In this document: positions 345 through 21,262 of the stretch, piece by piece
Layout: each line of letters begins with the position of its first letter
How positions within the stretch are numbered: position 1 is the first letter of the stretch
Source of the DNA: Pseudomonadota bacterium
GTDB taxonomy: Bacteria; Bdellovibrionota; FAC87; UBA2466
Assembly (NCBI GenBank): GCA_031425635.1
Contig: JANPJT010000098.1
Coordinates: forward strand, 1-46,581
Reading direction: 5' to 3'
Length of the DNA stretch: 46,581 nucleotides
Notes under the pieces: generated by a model
Told to the model about the DNA's origin: nothing
Database searches by the model: none
Seen by the model: the letters and a program-made list of their open reading frames with translations, nothing else
Position numbers and translations under genes: made by a program

Positions 345-992
345 TCACCGAGCCTCTTTGGCTATTGGCCTAAAAGACCTTAGAGCGACGTCTACCGCTC
401 CTTCCAAAAACCGCCGATCCTGGATTGCCTTGCTCAGCGCATTGATACCCTGCGTAAGCACGATAAGCTGGCACGCCCCGTCGCTGGCCGAGATTTTTCG
501 GGATATCACTTTTTGGGATTGCCCACGCCGAATAACGCGCAACCAAAACTCTTTCCAATTCAGGAAACCATCGTGTGAAATCTGCTGGAAAGATTTTTTT
601 AGTCCGGCCAACTCCACACAGGTATTGGTGTTCAAACAACCGAGCTGAGTTCGTTCATTGACCGCATGTTCAATCAAGAGAGAAAAAAAACGCTCGATCC
701 CCACCATCGCATTCTCGGACGCCTCAACGACCTCGCGGCGACGCAGTACCACACTTTTGCGGTAGTACTTAAGCGCTTCCATATACAGGCGCTCTTTACT
801 TGCATACTGGCTATAAAGGGCGCCTAAGCTTGCGCCGCCCTCCTGGTGAATGTCTCGGAGAGAAGTAGCGTGGTAGCCCTTTCGCCAGAAAAGCGCAGTA
901 ATTCGACTCATCGTTTCTTCAGCCGTTCTGTTCCGCGGGCGCCCGCGAGATTGGCGAAGGGAACCACGAAGTTTTTTCTGAGGAGCAGGCAT
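345..992 (-). CDS. TetR/AcrR family transcriptional regulator (NemR-like C-terminal GCL motif)
   Basis: N-terminal RGRPR...LFWRKGYHATSLRDI...GALYSQYASKERLY HTH; C-terminal GCLNTN. Divergent from the doxX operon. Confidence 0.92.
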   Translation of the reverse strand: MPAPQKKLRGSLRQSRGRPRNRTAEETMSRITALFWRKGYHATSLRDIHQEGGASLGALYSQYASKERLYMEALKYYRKSVVLRRREVVEASENAMVGIERFFSLLIEHAVNERTQLGCLNTNTCVELAGLKKSFQQISHDGFLNWKEFWLRVIRRGQSQKVISRKISASDGACQLIVLTQGINALSKAIQDRRFLEGAVDVALRSFRPIAKEAR

Positions 993-1015
993 TTAAAGAA
1001 CGATCGCTCTATAAA
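992..1015. promoter_or_regulatory. Probable TetR operator palindrome
   Basis: TTTAAAGAACGATCGCTCTATAAA matches its reverse complement at 20/24 positions, centred on CGATCG (1001-1006). It lies directly at the TetR start, between the divergent genes. Confidence 0.7.
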
Positions 1016-1084
1016 CTTGTTTCGTAAAGCTCTCAGTTAGTGCATCCTTAATGGGCGGGTTTAATTTTTGGTTGGGGGAATCAC

Positions 1085-1486
1085 TTGAACTGGCTCATCC
1101 TTCTGCTTCGGCTGATAGCGTCGGGGATTCTTTTACAGACACTTTTCTTTAAATTTTCTGCAGCTCCGGAATCAGTTTATATTTTTAGCACCCTTAACGC
1201 AGAACCCGGGGGCCGCTTGCTCTCGGGTGTCGTCGAAGCTATCGCTTCGGTGCTGCTTTTAATCCCGATAACCCAAGGCCTCGGCGGGCTCTTGGGAATA
1301 GCGGTAATGTCGGGAGCCATTCTAAGCCATTTGTTTATTCTGGGAATTGAAATCCAAGGGGACGGTGGACTCCTTTTTTGTTTGGCCGTCACCGTGTTTC
1401 TGGCCTGCACTGCCATCGTTTACTTTGACAGGAAGCACCTCATTCAGTGGTTGCCAATGCGCTTCCAAAGTTATTTCTCGAAATGA
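1085..1486 (+). CDS. DoxX family membrane protein
   Basis: Four hydrophobic segments; ILLQTLFFKFSAAPESVYIF...EP.GR...G..E...GAILSHLF.LGI...DGGLLF pattern; TTG start. Confidence 0.85.
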   Translation: MNWLILLLRLIASGILLQTLFFKFSAAPESVYIFSTLNAEPGGRLLSGVVEAIASVLLLIPITQGLGGLLGIAVMSGAILSHLFILGIEIQGDGGLLFCLAVTVFLACTAIVYFDRKHLIQWLPMRFQSYFSK

Positions 1487-1492
1487 GCTGAC

Positions 1493-3109
1493 GTGAGCAC
1501 CTACTTACGCGAAACCCTCTTTCGAAGCGATCGACTCGAAGTGCTTTGCTGCAGCTGGTCGATGGGCTCGGTTTCCAAACCCCATGACCACGGTCTCTCC
1601 ACTTGCGCAGTGGTAGTGCAAGAAGGGCTATTTGAGAATACGTTGCTCGGCGCCACGCCCGAAACTACTTTATTTGAAGCCGGTTCCGTCATTGTGACTC
1701 CGGCCAGGATCGCCCACTCCCTTCAGTGCGTTTCCGAAAAAGGCAAAACGATCCATTTTTACTCCCCTCCCCTTCGAGCGGAACCCGAACAAGGCGTTAG
1801 AAATTTTCGACCGCTCCCGATAGCCGAAATACGAGACGCGTCGGTTCGGATTCAACAAAGCGGAATGGATTTTTCCGAGCTGGAGGACGCCTTTCGGGTG
1901 ATTGAAAGCCGCTCGGTGACGACCGCTTCACCCTACTTCATGAACCAGCTTTTTTCTGGCTACCACCCGGAAGCTGTCCTGGCGGAGCAGTTTTTATCGA
2001 CTCACAAGACCACTTTGGCCACCTATGAAGCTAGTCCCGCGCTCACAGCGATAGAGCAGGAAGTCACTTCCCAACTCGGAACTTTAGTGGGCTGGAAGCG
2101 CAGCGAGGGGATCTCCGTTCCGGGCGGCAGTAGCGCGAATTTTATGGCGCTCCATTTGGCGCGCCACTTTAGGAACGCTTCGACGAAGGACGACGGCAAC
2201 GGAGCGGGTGAATATGCGATTTTTGTCTCGGATCAAGCGCACTATTCATTAAAGAAGGCGGCCGTTGTTTTGGGTTTTGGGGTAAAGAGCATTGTGCCGG
2301 TACAAACCGACGCCGCCGGACGGATGATCACGAGCGATCTTGAGAAGCAATTTGCCGCAGCAAAAGAGCGGGGCGCGAAGCCTCTCGCCGTCTGTGCCAC
2401 GTCGGGCACCACGGTTCTCGGGGCGTTTGATCCGATCGCTGAAATTGCCAAAGTCTGCGCCGAAAACAAGGCCTGGCTGCATGTGGACGCAGCGTGGGGG
2501 GGGCCCATTTTATTCTCGCCAGCCCACCGAAATTTGATGGCAGGGATTGAGCTAGCCGACTCGTTTACTTTTGATGGCCACAAGTTTTTTGGTGCTTCTT
2601 TGACGAGTAGCTTTTTAGTGAATCGGCACAGCGGCTTGTTGAGAGCCGCCAACGACGTTTCGGGCACGGAATACCTTTTCCATGACGACGACGGTATCGA
2701 TCTCGGAAGAATGTCTTGGCAATGCGGCAAGAAAAGCGATGCCCTATCGTTTTGGGCGATTTGGAAGCGTCGGGGGACTGACGGTTTGCGCCAGCTAGTG
2801 GAAACGCATTATCGCACACGCGACGAAGTCCTCGAATATGTTCGCACTCAACCAAGATTGCGGCTCGCCCATCAACCCGAATTTTTGAATCTTTGTGTTT
2901 ATGTTGACCCACCGCCGGGAGCGGCCCCGGACCCGCAGTATTCCAGAAAAATTCGCGAAGCGTTGATCCGGGATAATATAGCCATGGTAAACTATTCTGT
3001 GGATCGCGAAGGGGGATCGTTCTTACGCTTGATTTTTGCCCACCCCGATCTTCAATCGAAACACTGCATTGGTATTTTGGAGGCTGCCCTATCTACTACT
3101 TTTTCCTAA
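1493..3109 (+). CDS. Fusion of a cysteine dioxygenase-type cupin and a group II PLP-dependent decarboxylase (GAD/CSAD family)
   Basis: Residues 1-93: YLR, W..G..S..HDH..STC, AHSL, TIHFYSPP. Remainder: FMNQLFSG, TYEASP, PGGS.AN, HYS..KAA, ATSGTTVLGAFDP, WLHVDAAWGG, DSFTFDGHK (PLP lysine). Confidence 0.9.
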   Translation: MSTYLRETLFRSDRLEVLCCSWSMGSVSKPHDHGLSTCAVVVQEGLFENTLLGATPETTLFEAGSVIVTPARIAHSLQCVSEKGKTIHFYSPPLRAEPEQGVRNFRPLPIAEIRDASVRIQQSGMDFSELEDAFRVIESRSVTTASPYFMNQLFSGYHPEAVLAEQFLSTHKTTLATYEASPALTAIEQEVTSQLGTLVGWKRSEGISVPGGSSANFMALHLARHFRNASTKDDGNGAGEYAIFVSDQAHYSLKKAAVVLGFGVKSIVPVQTDAAGRMITSDLEKQFAAAKERGAKPLAVCATSGTTVLGAFDPIAEIAKVCAENKAWLHVDAAWGGPILFSPAHRNLMAGIELADSFTFDGHKFFGASLTSSFLVNRHSGLLRAANDVSGTEYLFHDDDGIDLGRMSWQCGKKSDALSFWAIWKRRGTDGLRQLVETHYRTRDEVLEYVRTQPRLRLAHQPEFLNLCVYVDPPPGAAPDPQYSRKIREALIRDNIAMVNYSVDREGGSFLRLIFAHPDLQSKHCIGILEAALSTTFS

Positions 3110-3966
3110 TGGGATCTTGCGCGCTAGTGGCGATGCTCGGCGGTTGTCAGAATCCAGCGGAGGTGGCCCGCTTACACTCTGAGGATTTCCATCGAGAGCT
3201 ACCCCAAAACCTCGTCCAATACCCGGGCTCCGATCGGCAGATGAGCGCCGCTTGGTCGGGATCACCGCAGAACCCTCCGATCATTTTTGTTCATGGCTCA
3301 CCCGGTTCATGGGACGGCTGGGCTGAATTTTTGATGTCGCCCAAGCTAACCGGAACTTTTCACCTGCTCGCAGTCGACCGCCCAGGCTTCGGAAAGTCCG
3401 AGCCTGGAAAGACGGAACGATCGCTGGCCTTGCAAGCGAGCAACATAGCCAAAGTCCTCGACCTAAACCAAAGCGGCAAGAAAGCGATACTGGTAGGCCA
3501 CTCTTTCGGCGGGCCTGTCATTGCCCGTATCGCTATGGACTACCCAAATCGGGTAGCAGCAATGGTCTTTGTTTCGAGCTCAGTGGATCCAGCGCTGGAA
3601 ACCACCAAATGGTACCAGTACCCCGCCGAGTGGTTCGTTTTTCGCTGGATGGTCCCGACTTCACTGCGTGTGTGTAATGAAGAAATTCGCGCACTAAAGA
3701 GCGAATTAGAGGAAATGGTTCCATTGTGGAAAAAAATTGAAATGACCCCGACCGTCATCTTGCACGGCTCCGATGACGACCTGGTCCCTGTCGCAAACGC
3801 GGATTTTATTGCTCGCCGAATCCACCCTGCTTCTTTGGTATCGATGAACGTTGTAGAGGGGTTGAACCACTTCATTCCCTGGAAACGGGCCGACTTGGTT
3901 TTCGATGCAATCGCCAAAGTAAGCCGTCACCTAGCGCCCACGCAAAACAAAGCCCCTTCAAGGTAA
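3109..3966 (+). CDS. Alpha/beta hydrolase, possibly exported or a lipoprotein
   Basis: FVHGSPG oxyanion motif, VDRPGFG, GHSFGG nucleophile elbow, HG..D.LVP, NHFIPW. Short hydrophobic N-terminus ending in LGGC. Start overlaps the upstream stop (TAATG). Confidence 0.88.
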   Translation: MGSCALVAMLGGCQNPAEVARLHSEDFHRELPQNLVQYPGSDRQMSAAWSGSPQNPPIIFVHGSPGSWDGWAEFLMSPKLTGTFHLLAVDRPGFGKSEPGKTERSLALQASNIAKVLDLNQSGKKAILVGHSFGGPVIARIAMDYPNRVAAMVFVSSSVDPALETTKWYQYPAEWFVFRWMVPTSLRVCNEEIRALKSELEEMVPLWKKIEMTPTVILHGSDDDLVPVANADFIARRIHPASLVSMNVVEGLNHFIPWKRADLVFDAIAKVSRHLAPTQNKAPSR

Positions 3967-3968
3967 CG

Positions 3969-5525
3969 ATGGCAGAATTTTTCGGAATTATTCTGGGCAC
4001 TTTTGTTGCAGAAGACATCGCCTTAGCAAGTGCCTTGTACTTGGTCTCCATCGAGAAACTTTCTCTCGTTGCCGCATTTCTAGCCTGCTCCCTGGGGATT
4101 GCGATCGGAGATGTCGCGTTGTTTTTTCTAGGCCGACTGATTGCGAGGTACTGGAGCTCCTCGAAAAATCGCTTTGTGCAGCCGATTTTGCGCCGCCACA
4201 AAAGCACGGCCCCGCGGCGTTTTGGTGCCACGGTTATTTTCGCTTCGCGGTTTGTACCGGGAACGCGATTGCCTACCTACGTTGGCGCCGGACTGACACA
4301 ATACAGTTTAAACTCCTTTCTCATTCTTACGGTTACCAGCGTACTCGCCTGGGTTGGGATGTCTTTCAGTGTGGCGGGCGGCCTCTTTCAGCTCGCTAAT
4401 GGTTACCTGTATTTAGCAGTGCCCGGCTTTTTTTTGGCCCTCGCGCTTTTGAGGTGGGGAATCCTGGGAGTGGTGAACCCGTGGCAACGAAAAGCCTACC
4501 GGTTCTCGTGGAGCAAGTACGCTTATTTTGAATTTTGGCCCAGCTGGGCGTTCTACCCTCCCGTGCTGGTTTGGTACGTTTGGCTTTCCATCCGGTATCG
4601 GAACCCTTTTCTTCCGCTTTATTCCAACCCCTCCATTTTAAACGGAGGGTTGATTGGTGAATCGAAAGGGGAAATTTATGACAGCCTTCGGAACGCCAAC
4701 CCCGCATTCCTGTTAAAAACCAAACTCGTGGTTTACTCCCCCACCCAAGAAAAAGAAGTAAGAAAGCTAGTTGAGGATCAACAGTTTCAGTTTCCACTGG
4801 TTCTCAAACCGGACAAAGGGCAAAGAGGTTACGGGGTTAAAGTTATTCGAAGCTTTGAGGAACTTGATCAATACTTCTGTCGATTCAACTTCGATTTACT
4901 GGTTCAAGAATACTGCGTGTGGAAGCACGAAGCAGGTATTTTCTACTACAGAATGCCCGACGAGAAAAAGGGCAGAATCTTCTCAATCACCGACAAGACC
5001 CTCCCCGAAGTCGTTGGCGATGGCCAAACGACCCTCGGAGATTTAATTCTTTCGGACCCGCGTGCGCGGCTCATTGCAATGACTTATTTTAAAGAGTTGG
5101 GCGGCCGAGAGAACGATGTGCCACCAGCCGGGCACCGTATTCTGCTCACGGAGACGGGTAACCATTGTAAAGGAGCCATTTTTAGTAACCACGCAGCCCT
5201 TTCCACGGCGGCGCTGCTCGCCACAATCGAAGAAATATTTGAAAGCATTCCCGGCTTCTTCATTGGGCGCCTCGACGTGCGTTATGAAAGTGCGGAGGCT
5301 TTGCGCGAGGGGCGCAATTTTAAAATCGTTGAGCTCAATGGGGCAGGCAGCGAGGCGACTCATATATGGGATCGCAACACCGGGCTGTTCGAAGCCTACC
5401 GTGTGCTTTTCCAACAGTGGGATATTTTGTTTAGAGTGGGTGAAATAGTCCGGGAAAAAGGCATCGGGAGACCCGTTAGCCTTTTTCAGCTAATCAGGGA
5501 TTACTTTGCCTTTGTTGCCACTTAA
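3969..5525 (+). CDS. DedA/VTT membrane domain fused to an ATP-grasp (D-Ala-D-Ala ligase-like) domain
   Basis: N-half: TFVAED, GIAIGD...F.LGR, SRFVPGTRLP.Y..AG (DedA). C-half: FPLVLKPDKGQRGYGV, LVQEY, GRLDVRY, IVELNG (ATP-grasp). Confidence 0.88.
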   Translation: MAEFFGIILGTFVAEDIALASALYLVSIEKLSLVAAFLACSLGIAIGDVALFFLGRLIARYWSSSKNRFVQPILRRHKSTAPRRFGATVIFASRFVPGTRLPTYVGAGLTQYSLNSFLILTVTSVLAWVGMSFSVAGGLFQLANGYLYLAVPGFFLALALLRWGILGVVNPWQRKAYRFSWSKYAYFEFWPSWAFYPPVLVWYVWLSIRYRNPFLPLYSNPSILNGGLIGESKGEIYDSLRNANPAFLLKTKLVVYSPTQEKEVRKLVEDQQFQFPLVLKPDKGQRGYGVKVIRSFEELDQYFCRFNFDLLVQEYCVWKHEAGIFYYRMPDEKKGRIFSITDKTLPEVVGDGQTTLGDLILSDPRARLIAMTYFKELGGRENDVPPAGHRILLTETGNHCKGAIFSNHAALSTAALLATIEEIFESIPGFFIGRLDVRYESAEALREGRNFKIVELNGAGSEATHIWDRNTGLFEAYRVLFQQWDILFRVGEIVREKGIGRPVSLFQLIRDYFAFVAT

Positions 5526-5583
5526 CATGACGCCAACGAGGTTACTTTCGGGTGGTCGCTTTAAGATCTATAACCAAGGAACA

Positions 5584-5970
5584 ATGATGGGCTTGCACAC
5601 AGTACTCGCATTTTCAGGGGGCATTCTGCTTACCCTTTTTTCATTTTGGGTGCTCTTTCGAAATGATACAAACAACATCCCATGGGTACTGCCTGCACTA
5701 CTGTCTTTGTCTTTTTTTCTATTTTCACTTTATACCAGCATTTCCGAGGGACCTCTTGGGTTTTGGGCCGATCACACTCGGAGCTTCTGGGGCAATCAGA
5801 TTTGGTTTGATCTGCTTCAGCTCTGTGGCATCGCTTGGTTTTTTGTAGTCCCTCGGGCCAAGGCGAAAGGCGTTCGGCTGGTTCCGTGGCTTGTGCTGAT
5901 AATTTGCACCGGAAGCATTGGCTTTCTGGCTTTGACCGCTCGCGTTCTGTACCTGGAGTCAAAAAGCTGA
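5584..5970 (+). CDS. Small four-TM membrane protein (DUF2834-like)
   Basis: AAGGA upstream of ATG 5584, in frame with track ORF 5506; WGNQIWFDLL and TGSIG.L motifs; hydrophobic throughout. Confidence 0.7.
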   Translation: MMGLHTVLAFSGGILLTLFSFWVLFRNDTNNIPWVLPALLSLSFFLFSLYTSISEGPLGFWADHTRSFWGNQIWFDLLQLCGIAWFFVVPRAKAKGVRLVPWLVLIICTGSIGFLALTARVLYLESKS

Positions 5971-6003
5971 AGCCAACGCTCGGCGGGGATTTCACATATA
6001 ATT

Positions 6004-6038
6004 CCACCTGGCGCCCAGCGGAGCGCCAGGTGGCTTTT
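6004..6038 (+). terminator. Intrinsic terminator between convergent genes
   Basis: Perfect 11-bp stem CCACCTGGCGC / GCGCCAGGTGG with an 8-nt loop, followed by CTTTT. Confidence 0.7.
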
Positions 6039-6055
6039 GCGCGCAAACCGCGGTC

Positions 6056-6523
6056 CTAGTAGACGACTTTCGTTAGCTTAGTGACTTCGGGCCACTTTTC
6101 ATTGGCCTTCTTAATGAAGCCTTCTTTGTCTGCGTTCCATTTTTTGGCAATGCTCGAATCGTAGTTGAGAAAGAGTTTACCTTCCACGATCGCAAACTGC
6201 TCGGGCTCTATCTTGGCTTTCGCTCCTTTGCTAACGCCGTAAGCGCAATAGCCGTTGTATTGAGGCGCGAACTTTTCCGGTGCCTTTGCAAATTCTTTCT
6301 GGTTCTTGGCATTTGCGAATCGAAAAGTTGATCCTTTATAAACGTGGGTAAATTCCGCGCTGCCAGCAACAGGCTTGCTGTCGGTGAAATAGGCAACGGG
6401 ATCGAAACCGTGGATCGCGACTCCATCTTTTTCAAAGAAATCGCCCGCAAAGAGGCTGCTAGAGGCGAGTCCGAACGCTACCCATCCTAACGCGAAAAAA
6501 GCTCCCATGATTCTGTTATTCAT
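6056..6523 (-). CDS. Secreted YHS-domain protein of the (seleno)protein family, Cys form
   Basis: Signal peptide; AIHGFDPVAYF, F.FAN..N...F...PEKFAPQYNGYCAYGV, IVEGKLFLNY, I.KA...W. Confidence 0.85.
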   Translation of the reverse strand: MNNRIMGAFFALGWVAFGLASSSLFAGDFFEKDGVAIHGFDPVAYFTDSKPVAGSAEFTHVYKGSTFRFANAKNQKEFAKAPEKFAPQYNGYCAYGVSKGAKAKIEPEQFAIVEGKLFLNYDSSIAKKWNADKEGFIKKANEKWPEVTKLTKVVY

Positions 6524-6590
6524 TTATGACTCCATAGTGTTAAGGCGAGGCTACCTATAGGGGCGCCTCGCCAGATTGTGTCGTAATCAT

Positions 6591-6620
6591 GTTAGTGGGC
6601 CTAACCTTCGAAACGTTACA
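6591..6620 (-). promoter_or_regulatory. Candidate ECF sigma promoter upstream of the YHS gene
   Basis: Minus strand reads TGTAAC-N18-ACTAAC, a GTAA-type ECF -35, between the YHS gene and the divergent ECF gene. Inferred only. Confidence 0.35.
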
Positions 6621-6726
6621 ATATTTTGTTAGATTCCCGGGGGCTCCGGGCCGCTCGAAAGAAAACGAAGATGCCTACAAAAGTGCGCGCGCAAGTGACG
6701 CCCCTCGCTTTCTCGAGTAGCGTTCG

Positions 6727-7353
6727 ATGATGGGTTCTAGTGAAGCACTGCGTTTTGCGTCTTGCCTAGGCATCGGTGAAACCGACTTCCTTCGGGCTTT
6801 AAGAGCACAAGAGTCTGCGGCAGTGACTGTTGTTATAAAGGAGTATACCCCGGTGCTTTACCGCACAGCGGTAGGTTTCGGACTCGCCGCGGACCATGCC
6901 GACGAAGTAGTCCAACTCACTTGGACCGGGTTCTTTAACGCATTGCCGCGGTTCGAAGGTCGATCGCAGATTAAAACTTTCCTCACCGCGATCTTGGTGA
7001 ACAAAGTACGTGAGCTGCGGCGCTCTCAAGCGAAAACGGGGGCTTCGGCGTCCATTGAAGCTGTTTGTGATTCGCAATTTGATGCCGAAGGAAACTGGAA
7101 TACCCGGCCCATCGAGCCTGAGCAGTTCTATCAAGCCACGCAAACCCTGAACCACTTGAACGAATGCTTAGAAGACCTCGCCGAAACGCACAGAATGGCG
7201 CTGCTTCTTCGGGAGTGGGAGGAGCGCCCCAAGGCGGAAATCTGTAACATTCTGGCAGTTTCAGAAACTAACTTGAGGGTGATGGTCCACCGGGCAAAAA
7301 CTAAACTGCGAGAGTGCCTTGAAGAAAAGGCCTTCGCCCCGATCGGGCTTTGA
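6727..7353 (+). CDS. ECF RNA polymerase sigma-70 factor
   Basis: ADEVVQ, FEGRSQIKTFL.AIL.NK (region 2), FDAEGNW linker, LLLREWE....EICNIL.VSETNLRVMVHRAK..LRECLE (region 4). Confidence 0.92.
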   Translation: MMGSSEALRFASCLGIGETDFLRALRAQESAAVTVVIKEYTPVLYRTAVGFGLAADHADEVVQLTWTGFFNALPRFEGRSQIKTFLTAILVNKVRELRRSQAKTGASASIEAVCDSQFDAEGNWNTRPIEPEQFYQATQTLNHLNECLEDLAETHRMALLLREWEERPKAEICNILAVSETNLRVMVHRAKTKLRECLEEKAFAPIGL

Positions 7354-7360
7354 ATTTTGA

Positions 7361-7672
7361 ATGCGGAAAACTTGGCGCGAAATTTTGCACGATGTTTTTT
7401 TTGCAATCGTTCCGACCCGGTGGCAAAAAATGGTGGGGACCTGTCAGCACATTACTGAGAAAGTCGCGCTATCGACGGAAACCTCTGCCTTCCAGAAACT
7501 TCAGATCGGGGCACATTTAGGGATTTGCCAGGCCTGCTGGCTTTACTTTGCACAACTGAAAATTCTCAGGAAAAGCTACCGGCGTTTGGTCGCACAGCGC
7601 CTGGCCGCTCTCTCTGGTGAGCACGTTTCCCAACAAACTAGTTTACTCATAGAGCGTTTTACAAAAAAATAG
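7361..7672 (+). CDS. Putative zinc-binding (zf-HC2/ZAS) anti-sigma factor
   Basis: TC...HLGICQAC (HxxxCxxC); lies directly downstream of the ECF sigma; no clear TM segment. Confidence 0.75.
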   Translation: MRKTWREILHDVFFAIVPTRWQKMVGTCQHITEKVALSTETSAFQKLQIGAHLGICQACWLYFAQLKILRKSYRRLVAQRLAALSGEHVSQQTSLLIERFTKK

Positions 7673-7700: not shown

Positions 7701-8525
7701 TTAATCCAAAGAGGCTTCCACTAGCCGTTTCGCGGCGCGGCCTTTGGGAAGCATGTGCAAAAGCAAAACCGAGTTGCGCACCCTCGACTTTGCCTGCCGC
7801 AGAACACGCAGATCATTGTCCACTACCGCACGTATTTCTAAGCCACTTTCGGCCTCGAAGCGGAGAAGCTGGGTGCCCTTCAGGGCGGCGGATTCCTCGG
7901 GGTAAAGCGCGAAAGTTCTTTTACCGCCCAGAATGGAAACGGAGGGGGAGCAACCCAAACGCTCTAAAGAAACGGCCACATCGCGTAATATCTGGTCCGA
8001 GCGGGCAGTGACAATGACCCATTGGACTTGAGACCCAAAAGCCTGATTCACCGAATCGTAGAATTCTAGGAACGCGGGAACAAATTCAATTCCGTTTCCC
8101 GCTTGCTCTTCAAACACTTCTTGAACCAAGTCCCAGAAACCTAACACCCGGGAGGAACCCGGACGTAATGAATCCCTGTTGCTTAACGATTCGGGCAAGT
8201 CGCCCGCTGGAAAGAGCGAGTCCCGAGCCCACGCAGCCTCATCGTACTCAGGCAACGCTGCTGGCCCATGCGTCTTCAAGGTTTCAAGCCAAACAAAAAA
8301 CAGATGGTGCCGCTCTACTGGAACCTCTTTCAAAATTCGTTCGACTGCTTTTGGAAGAACCACGTCGATGAGCCAAGCGTCGGTTTCCACCATTGTCCCA
8401 TCATAATCGACTGCAATAGCGAAGGTGCTGGCTTCCAGTGGGCCCCCTAAAGCCTCTATCCACTCCGGGCAGGCGCTTCCGAAAACCTGAAAAGCGAAAC
8501 AAAAAAAGACAAAGATGGACCGCAA
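7701..8525 (-). CDS. Secreted HAD-superfamily phosphatase-like protein
   Basis: Signal peptide; HAD motif I AVDYDGT, motif II VIVTAR, motif III Lys (ALKG), motif IV VVDND. Confidence 0.6.
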   Translation of the reverse strand: MRSIFVFFCFAFQVFGSACPEWIEALGGPLEASTFAIAVDYDGTMVETDAWLIDVVLPKAVERILKEVPVERHHLFFVWLETLKTHGPAALPEYDEAAWARDSLFPAGDLPESLSNRDSLRPGSSRVLGFWDLVQEVFEEQAGNGIEFVPAFLEFYDSVNQAFGSQVQWVIVTARSDQILRDVAVSLERLGCSPSVSILGGKRTFALYPEESAALKGTQLLRFEAESGLEIRAVVDNDLRVLRQAKSRVRNSVLLLHMLPKGRAAKRLVEASLD

Positions 8526-8751: not shown

Positions 8752-11310
8752 ATGCCCCTTGAAGCTGCCGGCGGATCGCCAAACACGAAAGATCTCTTCC
8801 TTGAATCCGCAATCAAACGAATCTGCCGTGTTCTTCCGCGCCAAGGCCCTATCAAAGACTTCATCGCGTTAAACCCACTGCACGGTTTCGGTTCCGTGCG
8901 ATTCGATTTAGCAATGGAGGAGTGTGCGGCTCTTTATGGTGGGCGCACTTACCTAAGTTGGGCCGAATACCGAGCCGCAGTCCAAGCGGGAACGCTGGCC
9001 GAGCGGGAACTCGAGCGAGTCTTTCAAATCCGCGAGACCTCTTCGGAAACTCAAGATCAAGTGCGAAAACGTTTGGCACACCCACCGGTCGGTTCCGACG
9101 AAACCCCGCGCGGATGGGCGTCCAACGGACTAAAACACCACTACTTCCGCAAGCTAGGGGTCCCCATGGACTTGCTAGCCCCACCGGTTTTTTTTCGGCT
9201 CTTGAGCGCCTACCTCGATCAAGGGATTGCTTTGCGGCCGTTTCCTGGCAACGCAAGCCTGTTCCACGGGATTGCAGGCCTGGTGAAGCAGAGCGTTTTG
9301 CCCCTTGCTCCCTTGACGGACAAACCTATTCGACGGCTTTTTGAAAAGTCTCCGATTGAAGCGATGGAATACTGCCTCCAGCGCATTGTTGAAAATGAAA
9401 ACTTGTTTGAAAGGTACTTGTGCGAAACAGTCCTTTCGCACCGAGGCTGGTACGCCATGGTGCAAAACATCGAACTTGCCCCGAATAGCCTTAGGGTCCA
9501 GAAATCTGTCAGCGTTGTGGAAGCTTTAGCGCTCGAACTGCTGATCGAATTGGGCTGGCTGCTTAGAAAAAAGGGGGCAGCGTTTGAAAGCGTCCCGAAG
9601 GATTTCTCTGTTTACGCCTCTCGCAGCGACAAGACAAAAGAGGAAAGCGCGATTGCGTTGGTACACGAAGCGTACGAGTGGACGCACTACACATCCGTTT
9701 TCAAAGCGCTGCAGTCAAGCCGCTCGGTTGCCGCCAAAGAAACTAAGGGACTAATCCAAGCTTTTTTTTGTATCGACGATCGCGAGTGCTCCATGCGCCG
9801 GTATCTCGAGGAAGAGAACCCACGGATCTCCACTTTCGGAACTCCCGGCTTCTTTGCTATGGACTTTTTGTTCCAAGGGCTGGGAGATGATTCGCCCGTA
9901 AAGCAATGCCCCCTCCCTGTGACCCCCCGCCATGTGGTCAAAGAAATCCCTGGAAGGGGCACTAGCAAAACGCGTTTAAAAGTAGCGCACGCGCGCCATT
10001 TGAACCTTCGCTCCAACAGCTTGTTTGGTGGCTGGTTCATTACGCAACTTATTGGCCCCTGGAGTGCCGTAAAGCTTTTCGGTAGTATTGCTAAACCAAC
10101 GCTCGAACAGCCGATGCTTTCTTCCCTCTGTCGCATTGATTCCAAATGTGATCTCATATTGTTTCGCACGGGCGAAGAAAAAGACGCTCATGGAAACTAC
10201 TTGGGTTACTCGGTTCCCGAAATGGCGGACCGCGTTTTCAACGTGCTGGCCAAATCGGGGTTGAGACAGAAATTTGCAGACCTCATTTTCATTGTCGGCC
10301 ACGGATCCAGCAGCACGAATAACCCGCACTTTGCTGCCTATGATTGTGGCGCTTGCTCTGGAAGAGCCGGCGCACCTAACGCTCGATCGTTTGCGATGAT
10401 GGCAAACTCGGAAGCAGTGCGGGACGTTCTCAAAGAACGCGGGCTGAACATCGCTTCCACCACTCGATTTATTGGTGCAATCCACGACACAGCCCGCGAC
10501 GAGATCGCTTTTTTTGACGACCAGAATCTAAACGCCAGCCAACAGGCACTTTTCGAGGAATTTAAGAAGTCCGTGGCAGTGGCCTGCCAGCTCAACGCTC
10601 AGGAGCGGTGCCGGCGTTTTGAAATGGTACCGCTAGGAATTTCACCCGAGAAGGCCCATGAAGAAGTAAAAAAACGTTCAGCCGCTCTCTTTGAACCTCG
10701 TGCCGAGTTCACACACAGCGGAAACTCGCTTGCGATCGTCGGGACTCGAAAGTGGACTTCGCCGCTTTTTTTAGATCGCCGCGCTTTCATGCAGTCCTAC
10801 GATGGCACAATGGATACTCCTGAAGGCCACGACTTGCAGTACCTGCTAGGAGCGCTCATCCCCGTGTGCGGAGGAATTAACCTACAGTACTACTTTTCCC
10901 GAGTGGACAATGCGACGTACGGTGCCGGCTCGAAGCTCCCTCACAATATCGTGGGGCTGCTCGGAGTGTCCAATGGTGTCGATGCGGACTTACTCGTCGG
11001 CCTTCCCAACCAAATGGTTGAAATCCATGATCCCATTCGACTGCTCATGATCATTGAGCAAGAACCCGAAGTAGCCCTTGCAGCGGTGAAGCGAGAACCT
11101 GCGCTTTTCTCGTGGGTTGAAAATGAATGGATCCGCTACAGCGCGGTTTCGCCCACCACTGGGGAGACTTGGATTTACTTCAATGGTGCAATGTCGAAAG
11201 TGGATCTCTCGCAGGTTCCCCCGACGCCACTATCCATGAGCAGTCGGGATCTTGTAAAAAAAGGAGGGAGGAAAAATATTCCCCCGTCCGTGATTGGGAG
11301 AGCCCAGTGA
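8752..11310 (+). CDS. dabA: DabA/YbcC (DUF2309) subunit of an inorganic carbon pump
   Basis: FIALNPLHGF, FCIDDR, TFG..GFF, VGHGSSSTNNPH, DCGACSG, HDT..D, FMQSYD, INLQYYFS.VDN...GAGSKLPHN, H.PIRL. Zn ligands C, D, H, C present. Confidence 0.92.
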   Translation: MPLEAAGGSPNTKDLFLESAIKRICRVLPRQGPIKDFIALNPLHGFGSVRFDLAMEECAALYGGRTYLSWAEYRAAVQAGTLAERELERVFQIRETSSETQDQVRKRLAHPPVGSDETPRGWASNGLKHHYFRKLGVPMDLLAPPVFFRLLSAYLDQGIALRPFPGNASLFHGIAGLVKQSVLPLAPLTDKPIRRLFEKSPIEAMEYCLQRIVENENLFERYLCETVLSHRGWYAMVQNIELAPNSLRVQKSVSVVEALALELLIELGWLLRKKGAAFESVPKDFSVYASRSDKTKEESAIALVHEAYEWTHYTSVFKALQSSRSVAAKETKGLIQAFFCIDDRECSMRRYLEEENPRISTFGTPGFFAMDFLFQGLGDDSPVKQCPLPVTPRHVVKEIPGRGTSKTRLKVAHARHLNLRSNSLFGGWFITQLIGPWSAVKLFGSIAKPTLEQPMLSSLCRIDSKCDLILFRTGEEKDAHGNYLGYSVPEMADRVFNVLAKSGLRQKFADLIFIVGHGSSSTNNPHFAAYDCGACSGRAGAPNARSFAMMANSEAVRDVLKERGLNIASTTRFIGAIHDTARDEIAFFDDQNLNASQQALFEEFKKSVAVACQLNAQERCRRFEMVPLGISPEKAHEEVKKRSAALFEPRAEFTHSGNSLAIVGTRKWTSPLFLDRRAFMQSYDGTMDTPEGHDLQYLLGALIPVCGGINLQYYFSRVDNATYGAGSKLPHNIVGLLGVSNGVDADLLVGLPNQMVEIHDPIRLLMIIEQEPEVALAAVKREPALFSWVENEWIRYSAVSPTTGETWIYFNGAMSKVDLSQVPPTPLSMSSRDLVKKGGRKNIPPSVIGRAQ

Positions 11311-13160
11311 TACTAGCGCTGAGCATGGTGTTTATCCCGCTGGGGGCAGGCTTCATTCTCCTGGTAGGTAAATTTCAAAACGAGAACACCATTTCGACCA
11401 TTTCACTTGCAGCCGCAGGAATGAACTTTCTGGTAATGATCGGAATTTCTGCTTATTGGCTGCTAAACGGCTGCGCACCCATCGACCTGTTTCTTGGGCC
11501 TTTGATCAAAGTCGGCGAATACCAATTCGATTTAAGCTTTCAAATTGATACGCTGACGGTCACCTTTTTGTTCCTGATTGCTTTCATTGGTGGCGTTTCG
11601 GTGAAGTATAGCCAGTACTATATGCACCGAGAGCCAGGGTACCGGCGCTTTTTTGTGAACATCCTTTTTTTCTTAGCCGGGATGTGCTTGCTAGCTCTCG
11701 CGGGGAATCTGGACTTACTTTTTGCCGGTTGGGAAATGGTCGGGATTTCCTCGGTGCTTCTCATCGCTTTTTACCGCGACCGAGAGCAACCTGCGCGCAA
11801 CGCGCTCAAAACCTATACCGTCTACCGTTTTTGCGATACCGGAGTGCTGCTAGGCGCTTACCTGAGCCATTTGCTTTGGCACGTTTCCCCCACATTTTCG
11901 GACTTGGATTCGCCGAGCCTCCGCATACTGCTGGAAGGGGCCGGGGAAGCGCCTTTGTTATGGCTAACACTTCTTGTTGGTTTAGCCGCTTCCGGCAAGT
12001 CAGCGCAGTTCCCGTTCACTTTTTGGATCCCCCGAGCGATGGAGGGACCGACGCCTTCGAGCGCTGTCTTTTATGGCTCTCTGTCTATCCACGCGGGTGC
12101 CTTTCTTCTGATGCGAATGTACCCCGTCTGGCACGCTTCGTATTATGGCCCTTTTCTCATTGGGGGCATTGGCGCTTGTACTGCGGTCTTTTCCTCCTTG
12201 GTAGGGCGCGGCCAGACCAGCATCAAAGGACAAATCGCCTACGCATCTTCCGCCCAAGTGGGACTCATTTTCTTTGAGCTCGCTTTAGGCCTCCGAGGGC
12301 TCGCGCTGTTCCACCTGGTTTGCAACTGCCTCCTCCGGTGCTTTCAGCTCCTGGTCTCGCCTTCGATACTCGCTTTTGTGATGCAGTCGCAAGGGACCGG
12401 GGGGCCCGGAAGAGTCTTTCGTTTTCCTTGGAAGACCGGTTCGGTGCCGGCCTGGACGGCGAGCCTTTATGTTTTTGGCCTATGCGAAGGGTACGTCGAG
12501 GAATGGATGCGTTTTTTCGTCTGGCGGCCAGTTCGCCGGCTGGGAAAACACGGGGGAAACCCTTGGGCGCAAGCGGCTTGGTTGGCTGCTTTGGTCGCGA
12601 GCGTAGCATTCCGACAGCCTGCCCTAGCCGGAGCGTTGCTTGTGCTGGCCGCCCTCTTTCTCTCGTTCTTTGCTTTGGGCTTTAACGGAGATCCTCGCCG
12701 GCCTTGGACCGCAGCGGCAGTGAGCGGCGTGCTGGTAGCAGCTTCCATTGCTTGGCAGGAAAACGAGGCCCTTTGGGGTCTGGCGCTCAGTGGGATGAAC
12801 ACGGCACTTGGCTGGGGTTTAGGGATGTGGGCACTCAATCAGTGGTCGGCGCCCGAATTTGGGCTAGACCAGTACCATGGGCAAACACGCCAGGACGCCT
12901 TCCACTCTTCGCTCTTGTTTATAGGGTTTCTTTTGCTAGCAGGGTTCCCCATTGGGCCCGGCTTTTTTGCTGAAGACATTTTGCTCCATTCCACTGTGAA
13001 AATCGGGTGGTGGTACACGGCTGCCCTTGGAGCGGTCTTTGTTTTTAACGGGGTGGCGCTTTGCCGAATCTTTGTGAGGTGTTGCTTTGGTTCTCGACCC
13101 GTTTCGAGTATAGCCCTTAGGCATGCAGCACTCTCCTCCCCTTCCCTTCGAACCCATTAG
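11307..13160 (+). CDS. dabB: DabB/NuoL-like proton-conducting membrane subunit
   Basis: YS..YMHREPGY.RFF, LFAGWEMVGISS.LLI, YRFCD, KSAQFPF..W.PRAMEGPTPSSA, H.G.FLL.R. Probable GTG start at 11307 overlaps the dabA stop (GTGA). Confidence 0.88.
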   Translation: MILALSMVFIPLGAGFILLVGKFQNENTISTISLAAAGMNFLVMIGISAYWLLNGCAPIDLFLGPLIKVGEYQFDLSFQIDTLTVTFLFLIAFIGGVSVKYSQYYMHREPGYRRFFVNILFFLAGMCLLALAGNLDLLFAGWEMVGISSVLLIAFYRDREQPARNALKTYTVYRFCDTGVLLGAYLSHLLWHVSPTFSDLDSPSLRILLEGAGEAPLLWLTLLVGLAASGKSAQFPFTFWIPRAMEGPTPSSAVFYGSLSIHAGAFLLMRMYPVWHASYYGPFLIGGIGACTAVFSSLVGRGQTSIKGQIAYASSAQVGLIFFELALGLRGLALFHLVCNCLLRCFQLLVSPSILAFVMQSQGTGGPGRVFRFPWKTGSVPAWTASLYVFGLCEGYVEEWMRFFVWRPVRRLGKHGGNPWAQAAWLAALVASVAFRQPALAGALLVLAALFLSFFALGFNGDPRRPWTAAAVSGVLVAASIAWQENEALWGLALSGMNTALGWGLGMWALNQWSAPEFGLDQYHGQTRQDAFHSSLLFIGFLLLAGFPIGPGFFAEDILLHSTVKIGWWYTAALGAVFVFNGVALCRIFVRCCFGSRPVSSIALRHAALSSPSLRTH

Positions 13161-14842: not shown

Positions 14843-16414
14843 CTAACCACCGCTCGAAGCGTTTCGGGCTTCCATCTGCTTAAACCATTCAGCTCTTTTT
14901 TTCTTTGAGCTTAAATTTTCACAAAGACCAATCTTGCGCTCAGACTCTTCGGAACCGCAGAGCGTTCGTCGGGAATAGCCCACATACTTCTCCAGAATAG
15001 AAGCCCGAGATTCACTGCTTCCGGGCTCGGCAGACTTTACTTGCTCAAAATAAGAGGGAGTGCGCCCGCCAATCGTCGAAGGGCTTAAAGAATAGGCTTC
15101 GGAATCCTCGGTACCGGAACCGGAATCTGCCGAATAGCCCGAGCTGACATCGCCTCCGCCTGCTCCGCCGTAACCGCCGTCTTTCGACATCACGTAGCCG
15201 CTACCCATCCGGAAGGTTTCTCCACCGCCACTTTCCAGCCCCACGCTAGAAAACGGATCCCCTCCCGAAACAGCACCGTCGCCACCCATCGAAGCTCCTC
15301 CGCCACCCAGCATGCCTGCTCCGGGCGAGCCGCCTCCGACGCCCGCGCCGCCGCCGGCCTGAGGGGAAGGGACGCCGTCTGCGGACGTGCTAGGACCGAT
15401 TGGAGAAAGAGGCACTTTATTTCCCAAAGAGAAAGCGCTTGGGTTTTCAACCGCTGCTTTGTTGAGAGAGTCCAAAATAGACGAACTAGGATCTTTTGGG
15501 GATTCTTTTGTCTCAGGTACCTCATCGGCGCTTCTTTTTTTGCGCGGAGGGGACGCTGATGAGGTCTCGGCCTTCTTTGGTTCCGCTTCTTTTTTCTCGT
15601 TGTTCGCCGCATTAGAAGGAGTCGAAATATTGATTGCGCCTCTATCTCGTTTAGATACCGCATCGAGAAGCCGGTTATGGTCGTCTCGCTTGCGTTCATT
15701 TTCCGGAGGAGCGCCTTTACTCGCAGAGCCAGGGGGCGGAAGACTAGGCCTTGGCGCGCTTGCTTCGCTTCGCCCAGAGCTTCGATCCCCATCCTTTTCC
15801 TTGCCCAAGAGATCTTGCAAAAGATTGAATACGCCGCGCTCGGAAAGAAAGTCGTCTGCCTTCGCACTTTCCTGCTGGCTGGTGGCTTTTTCTAGTTTTT
15901 CTTCGAGGCCCTTTAAAACATCGCTAACACCCGCCGGTGGTACTGCCCCCTCAGCACCTTTTAAAGCCGAAGTGATTGGCGCATTCGCGGCCGTTTGGCT
16001 GAGCACCGAACGCGCAGCATCGCTCACTTCTTTACCTGCGTTTTTCTGCACGCCGCTAAGAGCTTCGCGGTACAGGCGCTTTAAATCTTCGGCCTGCACG
16101 CGCGACACAATGCCGCGGTCTTTTTCAAGCTGGTTCACGACTCCGTCGAAACGCTCGGAGTCGACATCGGGGCTAATTCGGAAAGCTTGCTCGACAGCTT
16201 TTAGGGCCGGCACGCTAAGCCCGGCCTGCCGTAAACCTTCGGCTAAAAGGACACCGCGAGGCGAGCCCGTATTCTTAGTGGCTACAGGGGTTTCTGCAAC
16301 AGAGGGTTCTTCGCTTCGGTGGTCCACAATGGACTCGCCAAAGGCGGGCGAGCCGATAAGCAGCAAGGCGAGCGCGCGCTGAAGCCACTTTCTATTTTGT
16401 TTTGTCACGCGCAC
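14843..16414 (-). CDS. Secreted low-complexity (Gly/Ser/Pro-rich) hypothetical protein
   Basis: Signal peptide-like N-terminus (ALALLLIGSPAFG), long disordered linker, C-terminal Cys pair; GGAGAG upstream of GTG. Confidence 0.7.
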   Translation of the reverse strand: MRVTKQNRKWLQRALALLLIGSPAFGESIVDHRSEEPSVAETPVATKNTGSPRGVLLAEGLRQAGLSVPALKAVEQAFRISPDVDSERFDGVVNQLEKDRGIVSRVQAEDLKRLYREALSGVQKNAGKEVSDAARSVLSQTAANAPITSALKGAEGAVPPAGVSDVLKGLEEKLEKATSQQESAKADDFLSERGVFNLLQDLLGKEKDGDRSSGRSEASAPRPSLPPPGSASKGAPPENERKRDDHNRLLDAVSKRDRGAINISTPSNAANNEKKEAEPKKAETSSASPPRKKRSADEVPETKESPKDPSSSILDSLNKAAVENPSAFSLGNKVPLSPIGPSTSADGVPSPQAGGGAGVGGGSPGAGMLGGGGASMGGDGAVSGGDPFSSVGLESGGGETFRMGSGYVMSKDGGYGGAGGGDVSSGYSADSGSGTEDSEAYSLSPSTIGGRTPSYFEQVKSAEPGSSESRASILEKYVGYSRRTLCGSEESERKIGLCENLSSKKKRAEWFKQMEARNASSGG

Positions 16415-20482: not shown

Positions 20483-21262
20483 CTAGAAAACAAACCCAGC
20501 GTGGAGAGACGCTAGCGGAAGCACGCCGCCAAAGGTAGAAGAAACGACCGTTCCCGAGCCCAGAACAAGCTGCACGCCCGCTCTCGCCCCTAAAGTAAAG
20601 CCCGAGCCAGAAAATCGGAACTGGTACGTCAACTGCCCGAGGCCAGCTGGTAACAGAACGCTTTCCGAAGTGGAAGACAAAGTAAGCGTTAGTAGGTACG
20701 CGCCCGCCCCCACAAGAAAGCCGAAACCGTCCGCAGGCGGCCCCCCAAAATCAAGCCCGGCAGTTAAAAACCCGCCGAACCCCACTGCGCTGGCATCGGT
20801 TCCGGGCTGGAAGAAAAACAACGGCTGAAGCCCGATGCTCCAGCGCGGGCCTAGTCCGAAGTACTCAAAATGGCCCATGCCATAAAGGTACGTTAAGCCC
20901 GCATTCGCCCCGAGGCTTAAGCCATATTCGATTTCGCTCGCGGAAGTGACGGTAGCCTCGGAAGCCGCTGATGCAGTTTGTCGACTAAAGGGCCGGAGAG
21001 TGAAGCTCGCACCCACTTCTAAAGGGTGTTTCTTGTTCATTTTAGCGATGCGGACTGCAAACTTATCCTGGTGGAGTTTTATTACGGTACCGCAAGCTGC
21101 TAAATAAAGTTCGCCGCGGAAGCAGATACTTTCCTGAACCTTCACCTCTTCGCCCGCTTCTTTAACAGCGATAGCGATTCCGGATTGAAACTTCAGTAAA
21201 CGCGCTGCGAAACAAATATTCGTTGAGAAAAGCAAAGCCAACAGGGCAGTTTGGTATCTCAC
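20483..21262 (-). CDS. Secreted protein with probable C-terminal outer-membrane beta-barrel
   Basis: Signal peptide; alternating Gly/aromatic strands in the C-half; terminal LHAGFVF (BAM-type C-terminal Phe). Confidence 0.6.
   Translation of the reverse strand: MRYQTALLALLFSTNICFAARLLKFQSGIAIAVKEAGEEVKVQESICFRGELYLAACGTVIKLHQDKFAVRIAKMNKKHPLEVGASFTLRPFSRQTASAASEATVTSASEIEYGLSLGANAGLTYLYGMGHFEYFGLGPRWSIGLQPLFFFQPGTDASAVGFGGFLTAGLDFGGPPADGFGFLVGAGAYLLTLTLSSTSESVLLPAGLGQLTYQFRFSGSGFTLGARAGVQLVLGSGTVVSSTFGGVLPLASLHAGFVF

Follow-up and report, generated by a model that had tools for sequence, protein, structure and literature searches.

The stretch of DNA analysed here over its full length of 46,581 nucleotides (the window) is contig JANPJT010000098.1 of a bacterium of the phylum Bdellovibrionota (assembly GCA_031425635.1), and it carries near its start a cluster coding for a fused cysteine dioxygenase (CDO)-decarboxylase, an ATP-grasp ligase fused to a DedA membrane domain, an alpha/beta hydrolase, a DoxX-family protein, a secreted YHS-domain protein and several putative regulators. 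Our preferred reading, to which we attach a probability of roughly 0.4, is that this cluster builds and handles an envelope molecule carrying hypotaurine, which is most likely a membrane lipid capped with hypotaurine or taurine in the manner of cerilipin. The system appears to be undescribed in the literature searched.

The proposed route would begin in the cytoplasm with a well supported step, in which the fused minimal CDO and CSAD-like decarboxylase are predicted to convert L-cysteine to cysteine sulfinate and then to hypotaurine. The membrane-tethered ATP-grasp domain would activate a carboxylate as an acyl phosphate and link it through an amide bond to the amine of hypotaurine. With less certainty, this carboxylate may come from a membrane lipid, the best candidate being the free alpha-carboxyl of an acyloxyacyl aminolipid made by OlsB and OlsA (e.g., ornithine lipid), in which case the reaction would yield an aminolipid of the cerilipin type, capped with hypotaurine or taurine. 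The fused DedA domain would then carry the product to the periplasmic leaflet, where the lipoprotein hydrolase may trim, remodel or release it. DoxX and the secreted, Cys-containing YHS protein would form a redox pair on the periplasmic side that may oxidise the sulfinate to a sulfonate, and expression would be controlled by a local TetR-family regulator with a candidate operator and by an ECF sigma factor with a small ZAS anti-sigma factor.

If true, this reading would provide a gene for the ATP-dependent head-group extension of bacterial aminolipids. It would likewise assign a function to an ATP-grasp family that is large (1,120 representative clusters at E <= 1e-30) but uncharacterised, and to a branch of the DedA family, which is poorly understood, and it would reveal a bacterial hypotaurine synthase in which a minimal CDO, bearing the cofactor Cys of the mammalian enzyme, is joined to a CSAD-like enzyme. 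The DoxX-YHS, DedA-PlsC and hydrolase-DedA-ATP-grasp fusions described below offer testable partnerships for domains lacking an assigned function.

Predicted Synthesis of Hypotaurine by a Fused Enzyme

The whole CDO-decarboxylase fusion is encoded by one open reading frame (ORF) at positions 1493-3109 of the + strand (538 aa). Its first ~100 residues score 17.1 bits against the Pfam model CDO_I, under the cut-off of 23, since the N-terminal third of that model has no counterpart in the protein; the domain lacks approximately the first 55 residues of canonical CDO. A stand-alone CDO orthologue encoded by a relative with a split cluster (L039) passes the same threshold with 56.1 bits. A profile built from 17 CDO domains of the family matches the CDO of Bacillus subtilis (E 1.8e-17) and mammalian CDO1 (E 8.5e-17), and reaches only ~1e-4 with 3-mercaptopropionate dioxygenase. 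An alignment of 21 sequences shows no variation at five residues of the domain (R6, H31, H33, H75 and Y90). The three histidines align with the His ligands of the B. subtilis and mammalian enzymes, so that the 3-His site is present, and R6 and Y90 align with the segments Y58-x-R60 and LHLYSP of 2b5h; in the rat enzyme, R60 binds the cysteine carboxylate and Y157 is the catalytic Tyr. The AlphaFold2 (AF2) model of the domain is a complete barrel (pLDDT 89.7), the top Foldseek match of which is B. subtilis CDO with bound Cys (4qm9; E 2.1e-8, TM 0.78).

Five residues past the second His, C38 is kept in 19 of the 21 sequences and aligns with the Cys of HDHTDSHC (Cys93 of mammalian CDO), a position at which B. 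subtilis CDO has a Gly. In mammalian CDO, that Cys forms the Cys-Tyr cross-link cofactor. Such a cofactor in a bacterial CDO, i.e., in the window domain (1493-1822) and its relatives in loci L017-L050, would be unusual.

The decarboxylase occupies residues 124-468 of the fusion, and its PLP lysine (PLP, pyridoxal phosphate), K364, is invariant in 22 sequences. The closest solved structures are mouse CSAD (E 1.6e-82) and human CSAD (E 7.8e-82), ahead of GADL1 (7e-78), GAD67 (2.7e-69) and GAD65 (6.2e-66). Taken together, the conserved residues, profile and fold of the CDO domain and the proximity of its partner to CSAD make hypotaurine the probable product, and the proposal made in the preliminary description, that this fusion makes a sulfinate amine, holds as a prediction from sequence. 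Among the papers listed by the literature search, none ties Bdellovibrionota to hypotaurine synthesis.

A Membrane-Tethered ATP-Grasp Ligase Fused to DedA

The 518-aa DedA-ATP-grasp protein (AF2 model, pLDDT 91) passes the Pfam cut-offs in both of its parts, with 42.5 bits against PF09335 for the DedA part (cut-off 33.9) and 21.5 bits against RimK for the ATP-grasp part (cut-off 21). In Foldseek searches, its soluble part resembles the G domain of cyanophycin synthetase CphA1 (E 7.5e-11), then GshF and Ddl, all of them enzymes that couple an amine to an activated carboxylate, and the modelled fold thereby supports the earlier assignment of this domain as a carboxylate-amine ligase. Across 43 sequences, E15, D16, D48, R94 and R100 are invariant in the DedA part and K280, E321, R434 and D436 in the ATP-grasp part, where E455 and N457 are nearly so. 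Hypotaurine has no carboxyl group, so it could only be the amine partner of such a ligase. The helices that link DedA and ATP-grasp are retained in stand-alone ATP-grasp forms, whose matches start at query residue ~170-187, and it is therefore at the membrane that the ligase would act. Among the papers listed by the literature searches, none combines DedA with ATP-grasp, none describes a fusion of DedA to ATP-grasp, hydrolase or PlsC, and none ties ATP-grasp to aminolipid head groups; one aminolipid review cites a general ATP-grasp review and no more.

Distribution and Gene Neighbourhood of the Cluster

The distribution of the cluster was assessed in a phylum sample of 401 genomes of Bdellovibrionota, including that of the window (G000), and 30 related loci from 27 other genomes were fetched and searched with the window proteins and with the proteins of the relatives. 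The ATP-grasp part is encoded by 28 of the 401 genomes, which belong to 20 of 204 genera and to 8 families, so that the cluster is an accessory one with a patchy spread in the phylum. Of 41 near relatives, 3 encode the full-length fusion of the ATP-grasp part to DedA. Named relatives with a homologue are an Oligoflexia metagenome-assembled genome (MAG), a Bdellovibrionota MAG and the cultured Silvanigrella aquatica, the last of which encodes a full-length homologue. Within the genus of the window, the cluster is found only in G000 and G001, between which its proteins are 48-69% identical; a housekeeping OlsB shows 72-80% identity among the seven genomes of the genus.

Recurrence of the neighbours in other genomes, the test that had been set beforehand, was borne out. 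The ligase gene is accompanied by genes for a decarboxylase and/or CDO in 20 of the 30 loci, for YHS in 19, DoxX in 16, the hydrolase in 9, an ECF sigma factor in 8, an arginase-family enzyme in 7 (four arginase-type and three agmatinase-type), an unannotated outer-membrane-like protein in 7, OlsB-like, OlsA-like and MsrB proteins in 6 each, TetR and DUF1223 in 4 each, and CcdA-thioredoxin in 3. Three loci, one of them a 6-kb contig, have none of these neighbours. In G000, YHS, DoxX and the CDO-decarboxylase are each encoded by a single copy, and their adjacency is therefore not due to chance. Relatives place yhs within the operon, directly upstream of doxX.

Gene fusions tie the members of the cluster more closely. 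The CDO-decarboxylase fusion occurs in the window and in 12 other proteins. In L043, a 483-aa protein joins ATP-grasp to CDO_I (29.8 bits, Pfam cut-off 23), and it is through this fusion in relatives that the CDO branch is linked to the ligase. Pfam scans of L039 revealed a 403-aa fusion of DedA to a PlsC-type acyltransferase, and this locus also encodes a 265-aa DoxX_2-YHS fusion, which has a similar 258-aa ORF in L042. The hydrolase, which the preliminary description had counted as part of the system, is a true partner, being fused N-terminally to DedA-ATP-grasp in other lineages; the window hydrolase aligns over its full length with the hydrolase part of a fused form (25% identity, E 3e-15), and hydrolase, DedA and ATP-grasp thus constitute one functional module.

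Two variants deserve mention. In L044 (G076:C5, 9537-11050), the DedA-ATP-grasp gene is matched in two pieces with an in-frame TGA, which may reflect a frameshift, a pseudogene or an assembly error. Loci L043, L045 and L046 carry a soluble variant devoid of DedA, made of an agmatinase (TIGR01230, 202 bits, above the cut-off), the ATP-grasp-CDO fusion and a decarboxylase with Y..S.A; this variant may produce a soluble conjugate.

Possible Link to Aminolipid Synthesis

The lipid part of the proposal comes from loci in which genes for an OlsB-like protein (PF13444), a PlsC/OlsA-like acyltransferase and an arginase-type ureohydrolase lie in the operon, namely L018, L020, L022, L023, L039 and, in part, L037. 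G363, a single-contig genome, has the full cluster with an OlsB-like gene included. The best NCBIfam matches of these genes are indeed OlsB, OlsA and arginase, all under the equivalog cut-offs. In L039, eight or nine genes, several with overlapping ends, follow one another on one strand: ATP-grasp, CDO, decarboxylase, DoxX-YHS, DedA-PlsC, an ORF without assignment, OlsB-like and arginase. This order reads as a route in which arginase supplies ornithine, OlsB and OlsA make ornithine lipid, CDO and decarboxylase make hypotaurine, ATP-grasp joins the two and DedA flips the product.

The genome of the window has two OlsB-like and two OlsA-like genes, all on other contigs. Within its genus, the two carriers of the cluster alone have a second OlsB-like paralogue (L128, G000:C185, 1275-2129, and L131, G001:C40; 52% identical), a small point in favour of the lipid link. 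A conserved trio of genes for an OlsB-like protein, an M14/DUF2817-like peptidase and a second alpha/beta hydrolase was also observed (L127, G000:C231, 2294-8240; L130, G001:C24, 7624-10397; L020, 11613-14212). This trio adjoins the ligase gene in some genomes and sits elsewhere in G000 and G001.

A cerilipin-type ligase activity has been known since the 1970s. A passage of a 2026 review describes the transfer of taurine to the carboxyl of ornithine lipid as ATP-dependent and the gene of the enzyme as not identified (PMC12971839), and an excerpt on Silvanigrella paludirubra mentions one unidentified aminolipid (PMC7386786). It is conceivable, though we hold it doubtful, that DedA-ATP-grasp is the first ligase known by sequence that attaches a second amino compound to the free carboxyl of an aminolipid (here as a cerilipin-type hypotaurine/taurine:ornithine-lipid ligase), that its family is a general head-group ligase/flippase/hydrolase module, and that the sulfinate lipid is a membrane-anchored sacrificial antioxidant serviced by DoxX and YHS.

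Hydrolase, DoxX and YHS, Probably at the Periplasmic Side

A lipobox-like Cys follows the hydrophobic N-terminus in 7 of 9 hydrolase orthologues, and the N-terminal hydrophobic segment ahead of the hydrolase passes the Kyte-Doolittle threshold in 2 of 7 fused forms, the others having shorter stretches. These features place the hydrolase outside the cytoplasm, whereas the ATP-grasp domain must be inside; the hydrolase is thus probably a periplasm-facing lipoprotein. The window copy of DoxX matches Pfam at E 0.12 only, and its name is owed to its orthologues, 15 of 17 of which match DoxX_2 (best E 1.2e-9) and 13 of 17 DoxX.

The YHS protein, described earlier as being of the Cys type, scores 152.7 bits with NF041384, a model for YHS domain-containing (seleno)proteins (cut-off 70). 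It has a signal-like N-terminus, and the Cys of its G[YWF]CA motif is invariant in 29 of 29 sequences; we assume that this column corresponds to the Sec position. The recurrence of MsrB, CcdA-thioredoxin, DUF1223 and Cys-YHS forms an envelope-redox theme that keeps alive the earlier idea of an antioxidant function.

The Wider Ligase Family

Beyond the phylum sample, metagenome contigs were scanned with the 43-sequence alignment, which returned 451 relatives, the best 80 of which were used as loci. In these 80 loci, DoxX was found 42 times, OlsB-like 18, YHS 12 and the hydrolase 7, and in the 32 loci with at least 3 kb of upstream sequence, DoxX was found 23 times and OlsB-like 11. The core of the system is therefore DoxX and (hydrolase) DedA-ATP-grasp. 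De novo clustering of the neighbours in the 80 loci showed that the ligase gene is directly preceded by a DinB-family gene in 54 and has a TANGO2-like gene downstream of it in 44. A soil-type variant (L056, 9371-12316, and 53 other metagenome loci) consists of a divergent OlsB-like gene, doxX, the DinB-family gene, DedA-ATP-grasp and the TANGO2-like gene, without CDO-decarboxylase.

In a protein library of 1.84 billion representatives of clusters at 50% identity, the family comprises at least 2,849 representative clusters at E <= 1e-3, in addition to the count at E <= 1e-30 given above. Ten long forms (643-1121 aa) were scanned; 7 have an N-terminal alpha/beta hydrolase, 8 a VTT domain and 5 both, and one (P0241) unites TANGO2, hydrolase, VTT and ATP-grasp. 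Five proteins of 850-1121 aa (P0143, P0166, P0193, P0201 and P0241) carry alpha/beta hydrolase, DedA and ATP-grasp in a single polypeptide. The ESM Atlas hints at relatives in Bacteroidota and Pseudomonadota.

Evidence Against the Proposed Route and Alternative Explanations

Several observations weigh against the route to a hypotaurine-capped aminolipid. At its first step, the selectivity motif of CSAD, given as F/W-X19-S-X-Y in an extract of a recent preprint (bioRxiv 10.64898/2026.08.27.747329), is absent from the window enzyme, which has F-X19-T-X-A like 18 of the 22 family members; three others have Y..S.A and one W..S.Y. At its lipid step, the window locus has neither OlsB, OlsA nor arginase, and no arginase match was found in G000, a genome that is 89% complete. 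Only a minority of loci have OlsB/OlsA next to the ligase (6 of 30 genome loci and 18 of 80 metagenome loci). The OlsB family PF13444 is present in 26 of the 28 genomes with the ligase, but it is common anyway (227 of 373 genomes without the ligase and 253 of 401 overall), so that the phyletic link of OlsB with the ligase is weak, a modest enrichment among related genomes. A dedicated lineage of OlsB paralogues was considered and rejected: in a tree of 36 rows, the six cluster-linked copies need 5 changes, which 118 of 500 shuffles match or beat, and they group with their host lineages. As for the flipping step, the DedA part is matched best in NCBIfam by the undecaprenyl-phosphate transporter UptA (NF052604, E 9e-14, 52 bits, cut-off 250), a match that fits a glycan carrier as much as a lipid. 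Lastly, CDO-decarboxylase is found in only 3 of the 80 metagenome loci, so that the idea of a partner common to all these ligases was rejected, and hypotaurine cannot be a requirement of the ligase family as a whole. The branch leading to hypotaurine is an addition seen mainly in Bdellovibrionota, and in other lineages the amine of the ligase must differ.

Among the alternatives, the redox-defence reading of the preliminary description can be reformulated as the delivery of an antioxidant to the periplasm, with DedA carrying hypotaurine or a small conjugate, perhaps transiently lipid-linked, that the hydrolase releases and that scavenges oxidants together with DoxX and YHS. We consider this unlikely. 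The redox and repair genes listed above (MsrB, CcdA-thioredoxin, DUF1223 and Cys-YHS), the recurrent ZAS-type anti-sigma factor, the probably periplasmic hydrolase and the DinB-family and TANGO2-like genes that flank the ligase gene in soil loci all speak for it, but nothing of transporter type that would suit DedA to small solutes was found here, and the tethered ATP-grasp, the DedA-PlsC fusion and the in-operon OlsB/OlsA point to a lipid and not to a released solute. An improbable variant keeps the amide and exchanges the lipid: ATP-grasp would join a free (hydroxy) fatty acid, perhaps supplied by a thioesterase-like hydrolase, to hypotaurine, yielding an amphiphile of the N-acyl-taurine type. 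Such a scheme agrees with a fused core of hydrolase, DedA and ATP-grasp that has OlsB/OlsA as optional neighbours, and with weak matches of the fused hydrolase domains to Thioesterase (PF00975, E ~1e-6 to 5e-4), although these lie mostly below or near the cut-off. A gene of the choloylglycine-hydrolase family (linear amide C-N hydrolases) also adjoins the cluster in L017 (10139-11242, - strand; PF02275, E 2.3e-7). However, a hydrolase that looks periplasmic is unlikely to hand its substrate directly to an ATP-grasp domain that must be cytoplasmic, and the in-operon arginase and OlsB/OlsA are left unexplained.

The UptA match gives some credit to a third explanation, in which ATP-grasp forms an amide between hypotaurine or taurine and a uronic-acid carboxyl in a glycan borne on undecaprenyl (e.g., a precursor of capsule or O-antigen), and DedA flips the carrier lipid. 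In the Campylobacter capsule, ATP-grasp amidoligases amidate glucuronate, and taurine-amidated uronic acids occur in polysaccharides. We nonetheless find this distinctly improbable: the UptA score is far under its cut-off, the acyltransferases that recur are lipid-type ones, and the annotated recurrent neighbour families include no glycosyltransferase, polysaccharide polymerase or Wzx/Wzy-type gene. The simplest explanation, ordinary synthesis of taurine or another osmolyte, or cysteine detoxification, by a CDO-decarboxylase whose membrane-protein neighbours are functionally unrelated, would accommodate both the bacterial CDO and CSAD gene pairs already known (Agnello et al., 2013, via citing papers) and the ligase genes of the metagenome loci, most of which lack CDO-decarboxylase. 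It is very improbable in view of the translational coupling of the genes, the direct linkage afforded by the ATP-grasp-CDO fusion and the recurrence of the neighbourhood in 8 families of the phylum.

Locus Layout, Regulation and Neighbouring Genes

The nine genes of the preliminary description were located at their positions by ORF mapping and family scans (Table 1), and the ORF map agrees with the intergenic gaps of 6, -1 and 2 nt reported for the series doxX, CDO-decarboxylase, hydrolase and DedA-ATP-grasp. The small membrane protein placed after them does exist as an ORF, but it was rejected as a conserved part of the cluster, with a counterpart in 0 of the 30 related loci and no Pfam family. 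The hairpin that follows separates the operon from the convergent yhs gene.

Table 1. Positions of the genes, domains and DNA signals of the cluster in the window.
Feature	Positions	Strand	Basis and remarks
TetR-family regulator, 215 aa	345..992	-	Divergent from operon; PF00440 E 4.8e-9, TetR_C_13 E 4.9e-9
Imperfect palindrome, 24 nt, candidate TetR operator	992..1015		87% complementary
DoxX-family four-helix membrane protein, 133 aa	1085..1486	+	Named via orthologues
Minimal cysteine dioxygenase (cupin) domain of fusion protein	1493..1822	+	Family profile, residues, AF2 fold
CSAD-like group II PLP decarboxylase domain of fusion protein	1862..3109	+	PF00282 E 3.4e-70
Alpha/beta hydrolase, probable lipoprotein, 285 aa	3109..3966	+	PF00561 E 5e-27; GHSFG nucleophile elbow
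DedA (VTT) membrane domain + membrane-tethered ATP-grasp ligase, 518 aa	3969..5525	+	PF09335, RimK
Small membrane ORF, membership doubtful	5506..5970	+	Same transcription unit by position only
GC-rich hairpin, likely bidirectional terminator	6004..6033		11-nt perfect arms; 13 pairs counted in scan, 10 G-C
Secreted YHS-domain protein with invariant Cys, 155 aa	6056..6523	-	NF041384
ECF sigma factor	6727..7353	+	Sigma70_r2, r4_2, TIGR02937
Small soluble ZAS-type anti-sigma factor, 103 aa	7361..7672	+	NF052368 E 4.4e-5, under cut-off

The TetR-family regulator recurs in 5 of 31 loci, and all 5 of 5 orthologues retain the Cys of the motif pointed out earlier (GCLNTN). The ECF/ZAS pair, likewise noted before, recurs in 9 of 31 loci. 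The zinc motif of ZAS proteins is H/C-x23-26-H-x3-C-x2-C; the window anti-sigma factor has it complete (C28-x23-H52-x3-C56-x2-C59), and its HxxxCxxC part is kept in 9 of 9 aligned orthologues. A NemR-like identity of the TetR is unsupported: its NCBIfam matches are all far below their cut-offs (best, ScbR-type, 48.5 bits, cut-off 150), and there is no NemR model among the 15 matches. The palindrome upstream is present as described, and the corresponding intergenic region of a relative of the same genus (L017, 5039-5064) has a related one sharing the core GA(A/G)CGATC(G/A)CTC. The exact core occurs once in the window, which is weak evidence because the pattern was derived from that very site; 11 of 100 shuffles give at least 3 one-mismatch matches. 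A scan for sigma-70 promoters gave 3 sites, 4.0 being expected from shuffles.

Further along, positions 8752-13160 of the window contain a dabA gene (PF10070, E 7.9e-196) and, after it, one for a NuoL-like proton-pumping subunit, the two forming a DAB-type inorganic carbon uptake pair; a second copy of DabA, 29% identical, is encoded on contig C347 of G000. Four ORFs of 259-523 aa, at 7701-8525 (-), 14843-16414 (-), 16992-18284 (+) and 20483-21262 (-), matched no Pfam family at E <= 0.001-0.01.

Comparison with Known Systems

Several known systems share features with the cluster. The likeness of its regulators, from sequence alone, is to ZAS anti-sigma factors of the RsrA type with their ECF partners, the window anti-sigma being small and soluble with the full zinc motif, and to Cys-sensing TetR proteins such as NemR, with which the window TetR has a conserved Cys in common. 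The DedA part resembles the DedA/VTT family (UptA, YqjA and the TMEM41B/VMP1 scramblases) by its PF09335 score and by the invariant acidic and basic residues of its membrane domain, but falls under the equivalog cut-offs of UptA and of DedA. The ATP-grasp part shares the fold of the CphA1 G domain, GshF and D-Ala-D-Ala ligase (E 7.5e-11 to 1e-7) and keeps their Lys, Glu, Arg and Asp; it differs from them by an identity of 10-19%, by its tethering to the membrane through extra helices and by its fusion to DedA.

Formation of cerilipin (tauro-ornithine lipid) in Gluconobacter cerinus is the closest analogue of the putative reaction, being likewise an ATP-dependent amide formation between the alpha-carboxyl of a lipid and the amine of a C2 sulfur compound, and OlsB/OlsA-like genes and arginase share the operon in several relatives of the window locus. 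The two differ in that the amine of the window system would be hypotaurine, a sulfinate, unless oxidised later; since the cerilipin ligase of Gluconobacter has no known sequence, its likeness to the window ligase is one of chemistry class only.

The other close analogue is the bacterial taurine pathway encoded by adjacent CDO and CSAD genes (Agnello et al., 2013, cited both in PMC8153620 and in a bioRxiv preprint of 2026). This pathway, of the type found in Synechococcus PCC 7335, likewise pairs a CDO with a CSAD-type PLP decarboxylase, and the window protein has the Arg, the 3-His site and the Tyr of CDO as well as the PLP lysine. On the other hand, the two enzymes are fused in the window, the CDO lacks its ~55 N-terminal residues and, at the position of mammalian Cys93, has a Cys in place of the Gly of B. 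subtilis CDO, the decarboxylase has F..T.A instead of F/W..S.Y, and the pair sits inside an operon for a membrane ligase, a flippase and a hydrolase. The cluster can thus be regarded as a variant on the bacterial CDO/CSAD pathway combined with a putative aminolipid head-group modification.

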